From Candidatus Iainarchaeum sp. (GTDB lineage Archaea; Iainarchaeota; Iainarchaeia; Iainarchaeales; CSSED10-239), in contig JAQUVR010000042.1 in assembly GCA_028693335.1 (NCBI GenBank), positions 1-6,041 on the forward strand: a stretch of 6,041 nt of DNA. Direction: 5' to 3'. The position numbers were made by a program, and so were the translations under genes. The notes beneath the pieces are model-generated. The model made no database searches. It worked only from the letters and a program-made list of their open reading frames with translations, and had not been told where the DNA came from. This document shows positions 1 through 5,664 of this stretch, one piece after another. How positions within the stretch are numbered: position 1 is the stretch's first letter; each line of letters opens with the position of its first letter.

Positions 1-57
1 TAGTATTTATTTTGTTAAAATACTTTGACTTTCTATAATATTTTATTAATAAAACTA

Positions 58-67
58 TTTATAAATA
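58..67 (+). promoter_or_regulatory. Candidate archaeal TATA box (TTTATAAATA) for the taw1/hydrogenase-like operon; its position implies a leaderless or near-leaderless mRNA
   Basis: TTTATAAATA is centred about 27-28 nt upstream of the ATG at 90, matching the usual TATA-to-TSS distance in archaea. No Shine-Dalgarno-like purine motif lies before the ATG. TATA-like strings are common in DNA this AT-rich, so specificity is low. Confidence 0.3.
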
Positions 68-89
68 TAGTTCTCTTTAAAAAATATAT

Positions 90-1091
90 ATGACTAAAGA
101 AATAAATAAAGAATTAATAACAGATCTTAAACATAAAAAATATGGCATTTTTGGAAAACATTCTGCTGTTGAAATTTGTACGTGGAATAAAAAAGCATTA
201 AGAGGAGAAGGCGTTTGCTATAAAGAACACTTCTATAATGTTAATTGCCATAGATGTGCACAAATAACCCCAACTGTTTTGTGGTGTCATCAAAACTGTA
301 CTTTTTGTTGGAGACCAGCACAATATATGGATGTTGCAAAATTAGATTTAGACTTTATTGATAATCCAAAAGAAATTATTGATGGATTATTTATTGAAAG
401 AAAAAAATTATTAAGTGGATTTGGTGGTTTTAAAAAAGTTGATAAAAAAAAACTAAAAGAAGCAGAGGTCCCAAGTCACGTAGCAATCTCATTATCTGGA
501 GAACCAACACTTTATCCTAAATTAGATGAAATGATTACTTATCTAAATAGTTTAAAACAAATTAAAACAATTTTTTTAGTCACAAATGGACAAGAACCAA
601 AAATGCTTAAAAAGCTTCAAGAAAAAAAAGCATTACCAACTCAAATTTATTTGTCAATAGATGCTCCAACAGAAGAACTGTATCTTAAAATTAATAGACC
701 AAAAATTAAAGATGGTTGGAAAAATCTACAAAAAACTGTTTCTTTGTTTAAAGATATAAAAACAAGAAGAGTAATTAGATTTACTTTAATAAAAGGATTA
801 AATGATGATTTGACATTATTAAAAAAATATGTTAGCCTATTTGAAAAAACAGATGCTGATTTTTTAGAAATTAAATCATATATGTTCTTAGGATATTCTA
901 GAAAAACACTTGCTTTAGAAAATATGCCATCACATCAAGATTGCTTAGATTTTGCAAAATTAGTTGAAAATAATTCTAAAAAGTTTAAAATAGTTGATGA
1001 ATGTAAGCCATCAAGAATTGTTTTATTAAAAAATAAAAATAGTAAATATAAAAATTTTATTTTAACTGATAAAGAAAAAGAAAGAATGTAA
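90..1091 (+). CDS. taw1: S-adenosyl-L-methionine-dependent tRNA 4-demethylwyosine (imG-14) synthase, Taw1/TYW1 family radical SAM enzyme
   Basis: Radical-SAM motif CHQNCTFCWRP (C66-x3-C70-x2-C73). It is preceded by three Cys at 13-residue steps (C30, C43, C56), the auxiliary-cluster pattern I recall for archaeal Taw1. Lys45 in CYK sits where I recall the pyruvate Schiff-base lysine. Downstream ISLSGEPTLYP and FLVTNG are typical of this family. The ~330 aa length with no flavodoxin domain is the archaeal form. Confidence 0.9.
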   Translation: MTKEINKELITDLKHKKYGIFGKHSAVEICTWNKKALRGEGVCYKEHFYNVNCHRCAQITPTVLWCHQNCTFCWRPAQYMDVAKLDLDFIDNPKEIIDGLFIERKKLLSGFGGFKKVDKKKLKEAEVPSHVAISLSGEPTLYPKLDEMITYLNSLKQIKTIFLVTNGQEPKMLKKLQEKKALPTQIYLSIDAPTEELYLKINRPKIKDGWKNLQKTVSLFKDIKTRRVIRFTLIKGLNDDLTLLKKYVSLFEKTDADFLEIKSYMFLGYSRKTLALENMPSHQDCLDFAKLVENNSKKFKIVDECKPSRIVLLKNKNSKYKNFILTDKEKERM

Positions 1092-1961
1092 ATGAATGAA
1101 GAACTATTAAAAATTATAGAAATATTAAAAACAGAAAAAACAATTTGCCTATTAGCACCAAGTTTTCCAGTAGATTTTTCTTTTCCAGAAGTAATTTTGG
1201 ATCTAAGAGAAATTGGTTTTACTAAAATTGTTGAATTAACTTATGCTGCAAAACTTATAAATTATAAATATATAGAAATACTAAAAAACAACCCCGAAAA
1301 ACAATACATTTGTCCTAATTGTCCAACAATTGTTAAATATATAGAAAATAAGTATCCTGAGTTAAAAGAAAATATAATAGACGTTGCATCCCCAATGGTG
1401 ATTATGGCTAGATTTGTAAAAAGAGAATTTGGAGAGGATTATAAAACTATTTTTGTAGGCCCTTGTTTTGCAAAAAAACAAGAAGCAAAAGAAAATTCTG
1501 ATTGTGTGGATTATGCTATAACTTATAAAGAATTTTGTGAGATCTATAACTATTTAGAAGAAAATAATTCTCTTAAAAAAATAGAAGAAAGTCAAGAAAA
1601 TAAAGAAATAGATAAATTCTATAATGATGTAACTAAAATATATCCATTAAGTGGTGGTGTTGCAGAGAGTATGTTAAACAAACAAATAGTATCAAAAGAA
1701 GAAATAATTGTTTGTGACGGGCCAAAAAACATAGATGTGTCTATAAAAGATTTTAAAGAGTTTAAAACATTTAGATTTTTAGATATTCTTTTTTGTGAAG
1801 GTGGCTGTCTTGGTGGTCCAGGGATAATTAATAAAGATCCAATAGATGAAAAAATAAAAAAAATATTAGAATATAAAGATAGATCTAGATATTATCAACC
1901 AGATGAAAAATATGGCAAATTTATTCATGCATTTGCATTGGATCTGAAAAGAAAAAAATAA
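1092..1961 (+). CDS. Minimal [FeFe]-hydrogenase H-domain-like protein (Fe_hyd_lg_C-type), with no accessory ferredoxin domains
   Basis: Manual motif alignment to HydA: ICPNCPT matches L1 TSCCPxW, FVGPCFAKKQEA matches L2 MPCxxKKxE, and ILFCEGGCLGGPG matches L3 ExMxCxGGCxxGGGQP. Additional matches are LAPSFPV (APAVR region), LSGGVAESML (GGVMEAA) and VDYAITYKEF (VDxVLTTxE). The cluster-ligand candidates are C77, C125, C235 and C239. The ATG at 1092 directly abuts the taw1 stop at 1089-1091. Confidence 0.75.
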   Translation: MNEELLKIIEILKTEKTICLLAPSFPVDFSFPEVILDLREIGFTKIVELTYAAKLINYKYIEILKNNPEKQYICPNCPTIVKYIENKYPELKENIIDVASPMVIMARFVKREFGEDYKTIFVGPCFAKKQEAKENSDCVDYAITYKEFCEIYNYLEENNSLKKIEESQENKEIDKFYNDVTKIYPLSGGVAESMLNKQIVSKEEIIVCDGPKNIDVSIKDFKEFKTFRFLDILFCEGGCLGGPGIINKDPIDEKIKKILEYKDRSRYYQPDEKYGKFIHAFALDLKRKK

Positions 1962-3891: not shown

Positions 3892-5664
3892 ATGGCATTA
3901 GAATATGAAAACATAAAATGGCTAAAAGAAGCAGCATATGCAGACTCAAGAATAATTGGAAGAAAAGCAGCAAGATTAGCGCAATTAACTTCTGCCGGAA
4001 TAACTATTCCAAGAGGTTTTGTTATAACATCAACTGAGTATTTTAATTTTTTACAAGTTAATAATATTAAACAAAAAATATCTCAAATACTAAAAGCAAT
4101 TGATTATAATAATTCAGAAGATATTTTAAAAAAATCAAAAGAAATTCAAGAATTGATCTATAAAGGAAAACTAAATCAACAAATGGAAACTGAACTATAT
4201 AAATATTATTTAAAAATTGGCGAAACAGGAGTTGGTTGGTTAAACTCACAAGCAGATGATTTTGTTGCTGTTAGGTGTTCTGTTGTATGTGATGATGGAG
4301 AAGTATGCGACACAAAATTTATTGAAGAAGAAGGCGGATCTTTAAATGTCAAAGGAAGAGTTAATCTAGTAAAAGCAATTAAAGACTCTTGGGCAACATT
4401 ATTTTCTCCAGACGTAATAGAATATGCAAATAAAAAAAACATTAATATTGAAAGATTAGGAATAAGTGTTTTAATTCAAAAAATGATTGTAGCAAAATAT
4501 TCTGGAATAACAATAACCTCAAAAAGTCAAGAAGATCCAAATACAGTTATAATTGAAGCAGTATATGGTTTTGGTGCAGCACATGTAATAAAAGAAATTA
4601 CTCCTGATCATTATGAAACACAAAAAAAGCCATACACAACATTACACAAAAGCGTTTCAAAACAAGAGTGGGAATTAAAAAGAGTTAAAGGAATAACTAC
4701 AAAGGTTCCTGTAATTGAAAGTGAACAAGAAAAACAAAAAATAAATACACATTTATTAAAAGATCTAACAAACACAGCAATAAAAGTTGAAGAATTCTTT
4801 GGAACTCCACAAATGGTTGAGTGGGCAATGGATAAAGCAGATTTCTATTTAATTTCTTCTGAAGCTATTAATCCAAATGTTGCAGAAAAAACTAAAAAAA
4901 ATCTAAAACAACAAAAAATTCATTCTTTAAAAAATCAATTATTAGTTAAAGGTATTGGTGCTGTTCCCGGTGTTGTTAATGGAGATGTTATTATAGTAAA
5001 TAATTATAATGATTTAGAAAAAGTAACTGAAGAAAGCATAATAGTAACAGCAATGACAGATCAAGAAATGATGGAAGCAATAAAGAGAGCAAAAGGTGTT
5101 GTCACTAGTGGTGGTGGAACAATTTGTCATGCAGCTGTTATTTGTAAAAATCTAAATAAGCCTTGTGTTGTTGGCGCAAGGTTTGCAATAGAACAACTAT
5201 TAGAAAATGAAACAATTATGATAAACGGAACTAGTGGAGAAGTTTATAGTGTATCTAAATTAGATCTCGTTGATGTTAATGATGATGGATATCCAGAACC
5301 AGAAGAACTGGAAGAATTAATAGAAGGAAGAATAAAAAAAGAAAGTGCTCATTGGGAAGTTGTAAAAAGCAAAAAACCAAAACAAAAATCAATAAAAGAA
5401 CCAGATACATTTTTAGCACCTTCTCAAAGACAAAAAGAAACACAAGAAGTTTTAAAAAAAGAATATATTGATTCTAGTGGAAATATTAATATTAAAGATT
5501 TGGCAAAAATAGAAATTACTAAAATTAAACAAATAGTAATTCCAATAGATCAATTATTTTCTGCACTTGAAAGAGAAAAATTAAGAGAAGAATTTCCTGG
5601 TTCTGTTTGTATGCTTACAAAAGAAAAAATTAAAAAGATATTAAAAGATATTAAAGAAATGTAA
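3892..5664 (+). CDS. PEP-synthase/pyruvate-phosphate-dikinase-like phosphotransferase with an ATP-grasp (PPDK_N) domain and a phosphohistidine swivel domain, no PEP/pyruvate TIM-barrel domain, and a novel charged C-terminal tail
   Basis: N-terminal IIGRKAARLAQLTSAGITIPRGFVIT matches the PpsA vGGKnAsLGEm..G..VP.GF region. LIQKMIVAKYSGITIT, IIEAVYGFGAAHVIKEITPDHY and MVEWAMDK match the PPDK_N core (VQxMVxxxxSGVxF; ieAvwGLGEavVsGxvtPD; DIEWA). The swivel domain reads GIGAVPGVVNGDV...IIVTAMTDQEMMEAIKRAKGVVTSGGGTICHAAVICKNLNKPCVVG, with the catalytic-type His at codon 413 (5128-5130). The last ~137 aa (5251-5661) resemble no dikinase domain I know. Confidence 0.8.
   Translation: MALEYENIKWLKEAAYADSRIIGRKAARLAQLTSAGITIPRGFVITSTEYFNFLQVNNIKQKISQILKAIDYNNSEDILKKSKEIQELIYKGKLNQQMETELYKYYLKIGETGVGWLNSQADDFVAVRCSVVCDDGEVCDTKFIEEEGGSLNVKGRVNLVKAIKDSWATLFSPDVIEYANKKNINIERLGISVLIQKMIVAKYSGITITSKSQEDPNTVIIEAVYGFGAAHVIKEITPDHYETQKKPYTTLHKSVSKQEWELKRVKGITTKVPVIESEQEKQKINTHLLKDLTNTAIKVEEFFGTPQMVEWAMDKADFYLISSEAINPNVAEKTKKNLKQQKIHSLKNQLLVKGIGAVPGVVNGDVIIVNNYNDLEKVTEESIIVTAMTDQEMMEAIKRAKGVVTSGGGTICHAAVICKNLNKPCVVGARFAIEQLLENETIMINGTSGEVYSVSKLDLVDVNDDGYPEPEELEELIEGRIKKESAHWEVVKSKKPKQKSIKEPDTFLAPSQRQKETQEVLKKEYIDSSGNINIKDLAKIEITKIKQIVIPIDQLFSALEREKLREEFPGSVCMLTKEKIKKILKDIKEM

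Follow-up and report, generated by a model that had tools for sequence, protein, structure and literature searches.

Gene context suggests that an ultraminimal group E [FeFe] hydrogenase encoded beside taw1 serves radical-SAM enzymes

Every radical-SAM enzyme requires a one-electron reductant, and the physiological donors are known for two systems only; the flavodoxin domain of eukaryotic TYW1 is an in-situ reductant, and archaeal Taw1 is devoid of this domain (PMC8941971). The locus of Candidatus Iainarchaeum sp. described here joins the question of the radical-SAM electron donors to that of the redox partner and the maturation of the group E [FeFe] hydrogenases, the HydEFG maturases being missing from their hosts. 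Does the small hydrogenase encoded directly behind taw1 serve radical-SAM enzymes? The window, i.e. the whole stretch of 6,041 nucleotides that was analysed, carries both genes on its forward strand:

Positions 90 to 1091, forward strand: taw1, 4-demethylwyosine synthase (archaeal TYW1), 333 aa, assigned by TIGR03972, Pfam, and structure matches.
Positions 1089 to 1094, forward strand: TAA-ATG junction with a spacer of 0, in frame, as read from the sequence (AGA ATG TAA / ATG AAT GAA).
Positions 1092 to 1961, forward strand: hydA, 289 aa, a group E "ultraminimal" [FeFe] hydrogenase confined to the H-cluster domain, assigned by PF02906, homology, and the AF2 model.

The taw1 stop codon TAA (1089-1091) abuts the hydA start codon ATG (1092), and the two genes share one frame and strand. 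The zero spacer claimed in the original prediction was thus confirmed by reading the sequence.

The first gene had been taken as Taw1-type, and this assignment was borne out. Its product scored 359.2 bits against TIGR03972, above the cutoff of 317.95, with residues 11-314 of 333 covered, and carried the Pfam domains Radical_SAM and Wyosine_form. It aligned at 273 bits with the TYW1 of P. horikoshii (2YX0) and at 236 bits with that of M. jannaschii (6DJT, 2Z2U). All the cluster motifs were present:

Positions 177 to 257, forward strand: codons of the auxiliary-cluster ligands C30, C43, and C56 and of the Schiff-base lysine K45, from the alignment to 6DJT/2Z2U.
Positions 285 to 308, forward strand: radical-SAM CxxxCxxC motif CHQNCTFC with C66, C70, and C73, from sequence reading and the alignment to TYW1 structures.

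We take C30, C43, C56, and K45 to be the counterparts of C26, C39, C52, and K41 of the M. jannaschii TYW1, in which K41 is the pyruvate Schiff-base lysine, and C66, C70, and C73 align with its C62, C66, and C69. All seven catalytic residues (three radical-SAM cysteines, three auxiliary cysteines, and the lysine) are kept. The protein is approximately 50% identical to the Pyrococcus and Asgard TYW1 and exhibited no accelerated divergence; identity falls smoothly from 98 to 58% among the hydrogenase-linked relatives and from 56 to 49% among the unlinked DPANN and Asgard TYW1, and no long branch was seen. Judged by its sequence, the first gene codes for an orthodox Taw1/TYW1. This radical-SAM enzyme, with its two [4Fe-4S] clusters, is predicted to convert m1G37 of tRNA-Phe to imG-14 using pyruvate. 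In TYW1, the pyruvate Schiff base interacts with the auxiliary cluster (PMC8941971).

The second gene had been called hydrogenase-like. This description stood as far as the H-cluster domain is concerned and was understated otherwise, since the product belongs with the true [FeFe] hydrogenases of group E. Fe_hyd_lg_C (PF02906) was its only Pfam match (139 bits, residues 17-243), and neither an accessory Fe-S domain nor an N-terminal domain was present. The AF2 model showed one compact domain (pLDDT 90.9, pTM 0.90), and its best PDB fold matches were all H-domains of [FeFe] hydrogenases, with a TM of approximately 0.74. Moreover, HydA is 56% identical to protein P0043, the hydrogenase of Ca. Forterrea multitransposorum (Fm; locus L006), and an NJ tree built from 95 sequences places both in the archaeal CxNC clade. 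The active-site motifs were located by alignment to CpI and the family members:

Positions 1155 to 1163, forward strand: A22-P23-S24, invariant in the family (sequence alignments A1 and A3).
Positions 1308 to 1325, forward strand: L1 motif I-C-P-N-C-P, in which C77 aligns with CpI C300, a ligand of [4Fe-4S]H.
Positions 1461 to 1484, forward strand: L2 motif P-C-F-A-K-K-Q-E, in which C125 aligns with CpI C355, K128 with K358, and E131 with E361, all invariant columns.
Positions 1794 to 1823, forward strand: L3 motif C-E-G-G-C-L-G-G-P-G, in which C235 aligns with CpI C499 and C239 with C503, which bridges to the 2Fe subsite.

These four cysteines, K128, and E131 are invariant in both alignments, as are the 2Fe-subsite residues S100-P101 across the family. 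We take A22-P23-S24 to be probably equivalent to CpI A230-P231-S232, a segment that forms a hydrogen bond to a CN ligand of the 2Fe subsite. In the L1 motif, N76 stands in place of the proton-relay C299, and an extra cysteine, C74, occupies the position of CpI T297. HydA thereby departs from the canonical group A active site (C299 of TSCCP to N, M353 to G, and M497 to L). When the L1 motif was mapped onto all loci, its "CxNC" form marked the radical-SAM-linked clade.

The Forterrea enzyme is known from experiment. After artificial maturation, Fm binds the H-cluster ([2Fe]adt) and makes H2; it carries one [4Fe-4S] cluster and a 2Fe site, and in protein film electrochemistry it is bidirectional and biased to H+ reduction, its catalysis being substantial, unlike that of the group C enzyme (Greening et al. 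2024, PMC11216029). The same study placed group E as the sister to the sensory group C and found that the closed Forterrea genome encodes an active-type hydrogenase in the absence of HydEFG, which makes an alternative maturation pathway likely (PMC11216029). Ferredoxin and PFOR are encoded in that genome as well. With a group E member that takes up [2Fe]adt and produces H2, the analogy to Nar1 drawn in the original prediction is weak. By its sequence, the second gene falls among the group E ultraminimal [FeFe] hydrogenases, the smallest type known so far, and is not Nar1-like; its product is predicted to bind a 2Fe subcluster and to turn over H2.

Whether the pair of genes recurs in relatives had been proposed as a check, and the pairing proved not to be confined to one genome. 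Hydrogenase loci were gathered by a single-protein scan of genome contigs (at least 11 loci) and a profile scan of metagenome contigs. A taw1 gene lay upstream of hyd on the same strand in all eight archaeal genome loci. Of the non-redundant Iainarchaeota-type loci, 23 had 1 kb or more of upstream DNA, and taw1 was likewise upstream in all 23, being directly adjacent in 19 and two to three ORFs away in 4. The interval between taw1 and hyd held only one or two small ORFs, in those 4 of the 23 loci, and those of 192 and 258 aa had no Pfam match. The hyd-radA interval takes insertions such as MazEF, a DNA methylase, and the SUF operon; in the Forterrea-type loci, sufCBD-sufU lies on the opposite strand, convergent with hyd, and ends 3 nt after it. 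No SUF operon was found within the window. ArgRS, a thioredoxin-like gene, and radA are syntenic with the pair too (ArgRS-Trx-taw1-hyd-...-radA). The archaeal recurrence is that of a single lineage with broader synteny, and so it counts as one evolutionary event. No hyd gene was seen with the Taw1 orthologues (approximately 52% identity) of other DPANN, and no Taw1-HydA fusion (approximately 620 aa, with the hydrogenase domain at 340-620) was found among the best 150 cluster representatives.

The junction itself varied among the relatives. A zero-spacer TAA-ATG junction was also found in loci L001, L017, L019, and L072, and the taw1-to-hyd spacers were -17, -4 (four times), 0 (five times), 1, 1, 2, 4, 7, 10, 13, 15, 21, 38, and once 288 nt. 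For the other same-strand adjacent ORF pairs in related archaeal loci, for which the ORF calls were crude, the spacer was 0 nt or less in approximately one-third, with a median of 6 nt. In locus L099, the unrelated genes of the series Band_7-taw1-T2SSE are joined by overlaps of 4 and 1 nt. The exact zero spacer is ordinary for such compact genomes; the tight linkage is conserved, but the TAA-ATG junction is not, and this junction would reflect compact operon packing only. Programmed read-through of the in-frame TAA was ruled out, as frame and spacer differ among the relatives.

The abutting stop and start of taw1 and hydA have the geometry of a translationally coupled pair, and co-expression by termination-reinitiation had been proposed on this ground. 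One part of that proposal can be retained: the two genes very likely, if not almost certainly, form a single transcript. Stoichiometric expression and coupling, however, cannot be inferred from a junction that is both routine and variable (-17 to +38 nt, once 288, with one or two intervening ORFs in some loci). A candidate promoter precedes taw1:

Positions 52 to 70, forward strand: AT-rich TATA-like element aaactATTTATAAATAtag, approximately 20-35 nt 5' of the taw1 ATG, as read from the sequence.

The aaactATTTATAAATAtag element may be the archaeal promoter of a leaderless or near-leaderless taw1-hyd transcript; since the GC content of the window is approximately 25%, such strings are also expected by chance. 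A tRNA scan and an Rfam scan of the window gave no matches.

The sister group of this archaeal hydrogenase clade consists of Absconditabacteria-type (CPR) bacteria using genetic code 25, and its hydrogenases are 50-58% identical. This bacterial group extends beyond the archaea-only description of group E, which is treated as a fermentative archaeal clade in the main text of PMC11216029. In these bacteria, hyd lies between a RimO-like gene of the MiaB/RimO family (285 bits on TIGR00089, cutoff 251; best match RimO, 327 bits) and a HemW-like radical-SAM gene (172 bits on TIGR00539). Sixteen non-redundant loci extended both upstream and downstream of hyd, and a radical-SAM gene was found within three genes in 14 of them and adjacent in 12; locus L076 had no radical-SAM gene within 5 kb. 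NusA, UvrB, L9, and MutL are among the other neighbours, and the next commonest, NusA and UvrB, occurred in 9 of 30 loci only. The RimO-like gene was upstream of hyd in 12 loci and downstream in 8. Because it occurs on either side while the other neighbours change, the proximity of hyd to radical-SAM genes survives rearrangement. The link between hyd and radical-SAM genes is conserved in both domains.

This link follows the clade defined by the CxNC sequence. Ultraminimal genes that are more distantly related lie within an operon for 2-oxoacid:ferredoxin oxidoreductase (OFOR), beside a small 4Fe-4S ferredoxin with glutaredoxin, or beside a membrane protein of approximately 190 aa that had no Pfam match; therefore, the family pairs with varied low-potential Fe-S partners. 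OFOR or ferredoxin was never the neighbour in the CxNC clade. A link specific to Taw1, as originally predicted, is not upheld by these contexts: other DPANN have Taw1 without hyd, and the other ultraminimal clades pair with OFOR, ferredoxin, or the membrane protein.

Taken together, the gene context suggests that the tiny hydrogenase serves radical-SAM enzymes. We speculated that the CxNC clade exchanges low-potential electrons with them, an explanation that we favour tentatively and rate somewhat below an even chance. Since it has no accessory clusters, the stand-alone H-domain enzyme of this clade would have to dock directly on its redox partner. HydA would poise or re-reduce the SAM-cleaving [4Fe-4S] cluster of the radical-SAM enzymes from H2; alternatively, it would share with them a pool of reduced ferredoxin and release the excess as H2. 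Its clients would be Taw1 in the archaea and the RimO-like methylthiotransferase and the HemW-like enzyme in the code-25 CPR bacteria, and the fused flavodoxin domain of eukaryotic TYW1 would be the other solution to the same reductant problem. The bacterial hyd genes beside other radical-SAM genes fit such a partnership. Nevertheless, several observations weaken this electron exchange. The archaeal evidence comes from a single lineage, and Taw1 orthologues of other DPANN go without hyd; Fm is biased to H+ reduction and not to H2 oxidation; no HydEFG maturases are encoded in the closed Forterrea genome; and L076 shows no radical-SAM gene within 5 kb. With H2 at the pressures that prevail in the environment, the potential of the H2/H+ couple may be too positive for the reduction of radical-SAM clusters. 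Moreover, the ferredoxin and PFOR of Forterrea fit an ordinary fermentative role and offer the radical-SAM enzymes another possible donor.

The main rival to electron exchange is that the genes are packed together incidentally. HydA would then be a fermentative, ferredoxin-oxidising, H2-evolving valve of the kind that Greening et al. proposed, which shares a transcript with taw1 or with RimO and HemW in an inherited arrangement, and the genes would at most be co-regulated as O2-sensitive Fe-S proteins. This is a serious contender, although we consider that it probably does not hold. The zero or negative spacers between unrelated DPANN genes, the synteny of the whole ArgRS-to-radA region in the lineage, the occurrence of PFOR and ferredoxin in Forterrea together with the bias of Fm to H2 evolution, and the related ultraminimal genes in OFOR operons or beside ferredoxin all speak for it. 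However, it leaves the bacterial radical-SAM adjacency unexplained, including its survival through rearrangement while other neighbours change, and the partners expected of a fermentative enzyme, OFOR and ferredoxin, never adjoin the CxNC-clade hyd. Another rival is a Nar1-like service to Fe-S clusters: HydA, perhaps carrying only a [4Fe-4S] cluster in vivo, would deliver or repair the clusters of the radical-SAM enzymes, whose auxiliary clusters leave a coordination site open and labile. A relative of HydA, eukaryotic Nar1, acts in cytosolic Fe-S protein maturation. The absence of HydEFG from the closed Forterrea genome and the SUF operon ending 3 nt after hyd in the Forterrea-type loci agree with such a role, and PMC5352715 places Taw1 and RimO in a small set of radical-SAM enzymes whose auxiliary [4Fe-4S] cluster is held by three cysteines and has a free site. 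That SUF operon, however, is convergent, not co-transcribed, and absent from the window. To our knowledge, HemW has no auxiliary cluster, which counts against this role. In addition, the 2Fe-subsite residues are invariant across the family (C239, K128, S100-P101, and A22-P23-S24) and Fm binds [2Fe]adt and turns over H2, and we therefore argue for selection on a real H-cluster and regard a service to Fe-S clusters as unlikely.

The missing maturases might also be sought among the neighbours: HydE and HydG would be replaced by Taw1 in Iainarchaeota and, in code-25 CPR bacteria, by the RimO-like and HemW-like enzymes. The HydEFG-independent route that Greening et al. (2024) inferred from the Forterrea genome (PMC11216029) invites this explanation, and the only conserved neighbours are radical-SAM enzymes, two of them in the bacteria, like hydE and hydG. 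Against it, the archaeal neighbour is an orthodox Taw1 that scores above the equivalog cutoff and keeps all seven catalytic residues, and archaea and bacteria would need to have recruited unrelated radical-SAM families independently. Furthermore, the HydE (TIGR03956) and HydG (TIGR03955) models matched neither Taw1 (E up to 0.01) nor, with E up to 1e-5, the RimO-like or the HemW-like protein, and no HydF-like GTPase appeared in the Pfam-annotated gene lists returned for the hydrogenase loci. We thus consider this replacement improbable. Still less probable is a sensory role, in which HydA would report H2 or the redox state and control how active its radical-SAM neighbours are or how they are expressed. 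The position of group E as the sister to sensory group C and the replacement of the proton-relay Cys299 by N76 would suit a sensor, as sensory hydrogenases likewise lack the canonical Cys299. HydA, however, comprises the H-domain only, with no signalling or output domain, and the substantial, bidirectional catalysis of Fm is unlike that of the group C enzyme.

What the locus means depends on which explanation holds. Owing to the two-domain link, two or three small soluble proteins suffice for testing both of the questions raised here (HydA has a mass of 33 kDa). If H2 and HydA replaced dithionite for Taw1 or RimO, H2-poised radical-SAM chemistry would operate in those archaea and bacteria whose genomes are the most reduced. 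If the neighbours acted in maturation, they would be part of the missing HydEFG-independent route to the H-cluster. If the link were incidental, the locus would amount to a compact operon of the ordinary kind, encoding two known enzymes.

The pairing of taw1 with a hydrogenase gene was not found in the literature searched, which covered the main text of Greening et al. 2024 (PMC11216029); that text makes no mention of taw1, wyosine, or radical-SAM neighbours. Fm itself is the closest known system. It resembles the HydA of the window in consisting of the H-domain only (approximately 286-289 aa), in the degree of identity given above, in the CxNC form of L1, and in the four cysteine ligands and the lysine, and taw1 is directly upstream in the Forterrea genome too. 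The difference is that H2 chemistry has been shown for Fm, whereas the window protein is known from its sequence.

The Taw1 of the window resembles the characterised archaeal Taw1/TYW1 (2YX0, 2Z2U, 6DJT) in its full-length match, both cluster motifs, the Schiff-base lysine, and the C-terminal Wyosine_form domain; we know of no hydrogenase neighbour noted for their source organisms. Nar1/NARFL shares the Fe_hyd_lg_C fold with HydA and is functionally tied to Fe-S enzymes, including radical-SAM enzymes. It has an extra N-terminal ferredoxin-like cluster domain and has lost the H-cluster chemistry and the 2Fe-site residues; HydA, in contrast, is devoid of the N-terminal domain and has retained the residues of the 2Fe site, and H2 production is established for its orthologue. 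The bacterial loci recall the HydE and HydG maturases in having radical-SAM genes beside hydA, but the neighbours here are Taw1, RimO-like, and HemW-like proteins without a match to the maturase models. Dph3 with Dph1/Dph2 is one of the two systems in which the redox partner of a radical-SAM or radical-SAM-type enzyme has been identified (PMC8941971); Dph3, however, is an unrelated small iron protein, and neither operon logic nor a hydrogenase is involved. Eukaryotic TYW1, with its N-terminal flavodoxin_1 domain, carries a dedicated low-potential module in cis, to which hyd would be the functional analogue in trans (Young and Bandarian 2021, PMC8941971). That module is an FMN domain, covalently joined and dependent on NAD(P)H, whereas the candidate module here is a separate H-cluster protein.

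The window, a 6,041-bp contig of an Iainarchaeota (DPANN) MAG, is AT-rich (~25% GC), and reading of its sequence returned the taw1-hyd junction exactly where the original prediction had placed it. The ORFs considered here were as follows.

90-1091, + strand: taw1, ending in the stop TAA at 1089-1091
1092-1961, + strand: hyd, whose ATG abuts the taw1 TAA (spacer 0, same frame)
1925-2275, - strand: MazF/PemK-like toxin ORF, convergent to hyd and overlapping its last 37 nt
2247-2537, - strand: MazE/AbrB-like antitoxin ORF, convergent to hyd
3892-5664, + strand: PEP synthase/PPDK-like protein of 590 aa
5671-6039, + strand: Lys-rich ORF of at least 122 aa, reaching the contig end

The PPDK-like protein has nucleotide-binding (PPDK_N) and mobile His domains and a Lys/Glu-rich tail instead of the C-terminal PEP/pyruvate-binding TIM-barrel; the related loci L001 and L002 keep it, and L097 has a version of 717 aa. 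The Lys-rich ORF, probably a coiled coil, had no family match and is kept in L001.

The first ORF is predicted to encode an orthodox Taw1, as originally assigned. It scored 359 bits against the TYW1 equivalog model (cutoff 318), contained the Radical_SAM and Wyosine_form domains, and aligned end to end with the solved TYW1 of Pyrococcus (273 bits) and Methanocaldococcus (236 bits). Alignment to the solved enzymes showed that it retains C66/C70/C73 of the radical-SAM CxxxCxxC motif, three cysteines for the auxiliary cluster (C30/C43/C56), and K45, the lysine that forms the pyruvate Schiff base. Its identity to other TYW1s declines gradually, being 98-58% among close relatives and 56-49% for those of Micrarchaeota, Aenigmarchaeota, and Asgard, and no sign of a diverged paralogue was seen in this comparison.

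The hyd product, HydA(E), is 289 aa long, and PF02906, the [FeFe]-hydrogenase H-cluster domain, is the only domain in it. When aligned to the hydrogenase CpI, it retains all four cysteines of the cluster as well as the L2-motif lysine and glutamate (CpI C300, C355, C499, C503, K358, and E361) and lacks the proton-relay Cys299 (L1 motif I-C-P-N-C-P) and Met353/Met497. The AlphaFold model, made from 40 homologues and confident (pLDDT 90.9, pTM 0.90), found its best PDB fold matches in [FeFe]-hydrogenase catalytic domains (TM ~0.74). HydA(E) shares 56% identity with P0043 (locus L006), the only hydrogenase of Ca. Forterrea multitransposorum, which was named Fm and assigned to the 'ultraminimal' group E (Greening et al. 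2024, PMC11216029). Fm has one [4Fe-4S] cluster, takes up synthetic [2Fe]adt, exhibits H-cluster FTIR bands, and turns over H2 in both directions with a bias to H+ reduction (PMC11216029). HydA(E), the 'hydrogenase-like Fe-S protein', therefore belongs to a hydrogenase group already known, and the reservation in '-like' falls away.

The zero spacer had also been taken to imply stoichiometric coupling, which the junction does not show. Spacers between taw1 and hyd in related archaeal loci ranged from -17 to +38 nt, with one case of 288 nt, and by simple longest-ORF calls, the method used for all fetched loci, about one-third of the other same-strand adjacent ORF pairs in these loci had spacers of 0 nt or less. 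Similar overlaps join taw1 to both of its neighbours on another DPANN contig, where a Band_7 gene lies upstream of it and a type-II/IV secretion ATPase gene lies downstream. The junction is therefore not special and reflects compact operon packing; taw1 and hyd are probably co-transcribed.

The adjacency itself was found to recur. In species-representative genomes, taw1 lies directly upstream of hyd in 8/8 archaeal loci, including that of the closed Forterrea chromosome, with hyd identities of 53-85%. A further 80 loci came from metagenome contigs scanned with a profile. After redundancy was removed at 95% hydrogenase identity and the archaeal count was limited to loci that had 1 kb or more of DNA upstream, none of the 23 archaeal loci lacked taw1 upstream of hyd; it was the immediate neighbour in 19 and two to three ORFs upstream in the other four. 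In those four, which represent four archaeal lineages, an ORF of 192 or 258 aa without a Pfam match is inserted between the two genes, with overlapping or near-zero junctions that make a three-gene operon.

L034, 4414-4992: inserted ORF
L053, 1023-1799: inserted ORF
L071, 3339-4115: inserted ORF
L061, 4232-5008: inserted ORF, the 258-aa version split into 147 and 86 aa

All these loci belong to a single lineage that also shares synteny of ArgRS, a thioredoxin-like gene, and radA, so the archaeal recurrence is a single arrangement passed on by descent and not a series of independent ones. Taw1 orthologues of other DPANN (~52% identity) had no hydrogenase beside them. The taw1-hyd interval is broken only by small unannotated ORFs, whereas the hyd-radA interval takes larger insertions, namely MazEF, a DNA methylase, and a SUF operon. 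The MazEF pair is such a variable insertion, because L002 and L020 have it but L001 and Forterrea-type loci do not. The SUF operon, for Fe-S assembly, occurs in Forterrea-type genomes and is absent from the window's own lineage.

L006, 6859-10377 (also in L007 and L008), - strand: sufC-sufB-sufD-sufU/NifU, converging on hyd and ending 3 nt past its stop

Many of the closest HydA homologues (50-58% identity) are bacterial and are named Absconditabacteria/SR1 by their sources. Genes for NusA, UvrB, ribosomal protein L9, MutL, and F-type ATPase lie in their loci (L012-L015, L032-L083), where TGA encodes an amino acid at positions of conserved glycine, a sign that the hosts use genetic code 25. 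The L1 signature C-x-N-C-P is common to the archaeal and bacterial members (the CxNC clade; the hydrogenase tree was built by neighbour-joining), and hydrogenases this similar in code-25 CPR bacteria imply a DPANN-CPR transfer. The bacterial gene is flanked by a MiaB/RimO-family methylthiotransferase gene (TIGR00089, 285 bits, cutoff 251; best match RimO, 327 bits) and a HemW-like radical-SAM gene (TIGR00539, 172 bits, under cutoff). Sixteen non-redundant bacterial loci extend to both sides of hyd; in 14 of them a radical-SAM gene lies within three genes of hyd, in 12 one is adjacent, and nine have both. Over the full non-redundant bacterial set of 30 loci, the RimO-like gene lies upstream of hyd in 12 and downstream in eight, and the next commonest neighbours, NusA and UvrB, reach only 9/30; closeness that persists through rearrangement usually points to selection for clustering. 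The adjacently encoded partners of the CxNC clade are radical-SAM enzymes in both domains. In L060 (2241-2981) the hydrogenase frame is split into ORFs of 124 and 115 aa; the split could reflect a pseudogene, an error of frame, or an alternative-code genome read with table 11.

No radical-SAM neighbour was present in the loci of ultraminimal relatives that are more distant, with 37-47% identity and the L1 motif I-[AS]-x-x-C-P. In L090 the hydrogenase gene closes an operon of overlapping genes for 2-oxoacid:ferredoxin oxidoreductase (OFOR) and nitroreductase, in agreement with the OFOR adjacency reported for Nanoarchaeota and Micrarchaeota (Greening et al. 2024, PMC11216029).

L090, 2074-5825: OFOR alpha/gamma, nitroreductase, OFOR beta, hydrogenase

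An 81-aa 4Fe-4S ferredoxin gene and a glutaredoxin-like gene lie directly upstream in L085 and L095, and a conserved multi-pass membrane protein of ~190 aa without a Pfam match adjoins the hydrogenase in L016, L082, L085-L087, L089, and L094-L096 (37-44% identity). The ultraminimal family hence appears to be a free-standing H-cluster module whose low-potential Fe-S partner differs by clade. Among the cluster representatives, P0132 is a predicted protein of 4,122 aa with 14 separate hydrogenase-domain stretches; it could be a polyprotein of tandem repeats, or else an artefact of assembly or gene calling.

Mechanistically, the simplest explanation is one of electron supply. Radical-SAM enzymes all require a one-electron donor of very low potential. 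Only two systems have a known physiological donor, and eukaryotic TYW1 has its own flavodoxin domain, whereas archaeal Taw1 does not (PMC8941971). Since HydA(E) in turn has no relay clusters, so that it would have to dock straight on its redox partner, we tentatively favour, as an inference, a redox partnership in which it would contact the radical-SAM enzymes and exchange electrons with them. HydA(E) would poise or re-reduce the radical-SAM cluster with H2 as the source; alternatively, both might share a reduced-ferredoxin pool, from which surplus electrons would be released as H2. Nearly as likely is incidental packing with a purely fermentative hydrogenase, a possibility with which PFOR and ferredoxin in Forterrea, the evolution bias of Fm (PMC11216029), and the broad archaeal synteny agree, but which leaves the bacterial radical-SAM neighbour pattern unexplained.

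A Nar1-like Fe-S service role seems unlikely: the absence of HydEFG (PMC11216029), the SUF operon end beside hyd in Forterrea-type loci, and the open-site auxiliary clusters common to TYW1 and RimO (PMC5352715) would suit it, but the residues holding the 2Fe subsite are invariant and Fm is catalytic (PMC11216029). That the radical-SAM neighbours stand in for HydE/HydG would speak to the maturation question left open by Greening et al. (PMC11216029), but we consider it improbable, as unrelated radical-SAM families would have to be recruited independently, the Taw1 sequence is orthodox, and the HydE/HydG models matched none of the Taw1, RimO-like, and HemW-like neighbours. Least probable of all is a sensory role, for which HydA(E) has no output domain.

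Both protein families are already known, and what appears to be undescribed is their conserved pairing. The main text of Greening et al. 2024 (PMC11216029) mentions neither the conserved taw1-hydA(E) operon nor the code-25 bacterial sister clade and its radical-SAM neighbours, and no description of the pairing was found in other searchable literature. Group E was described there as an archaeal clade (PMC11216029); however, it is found here to have code-25 bacterial relatives as well.
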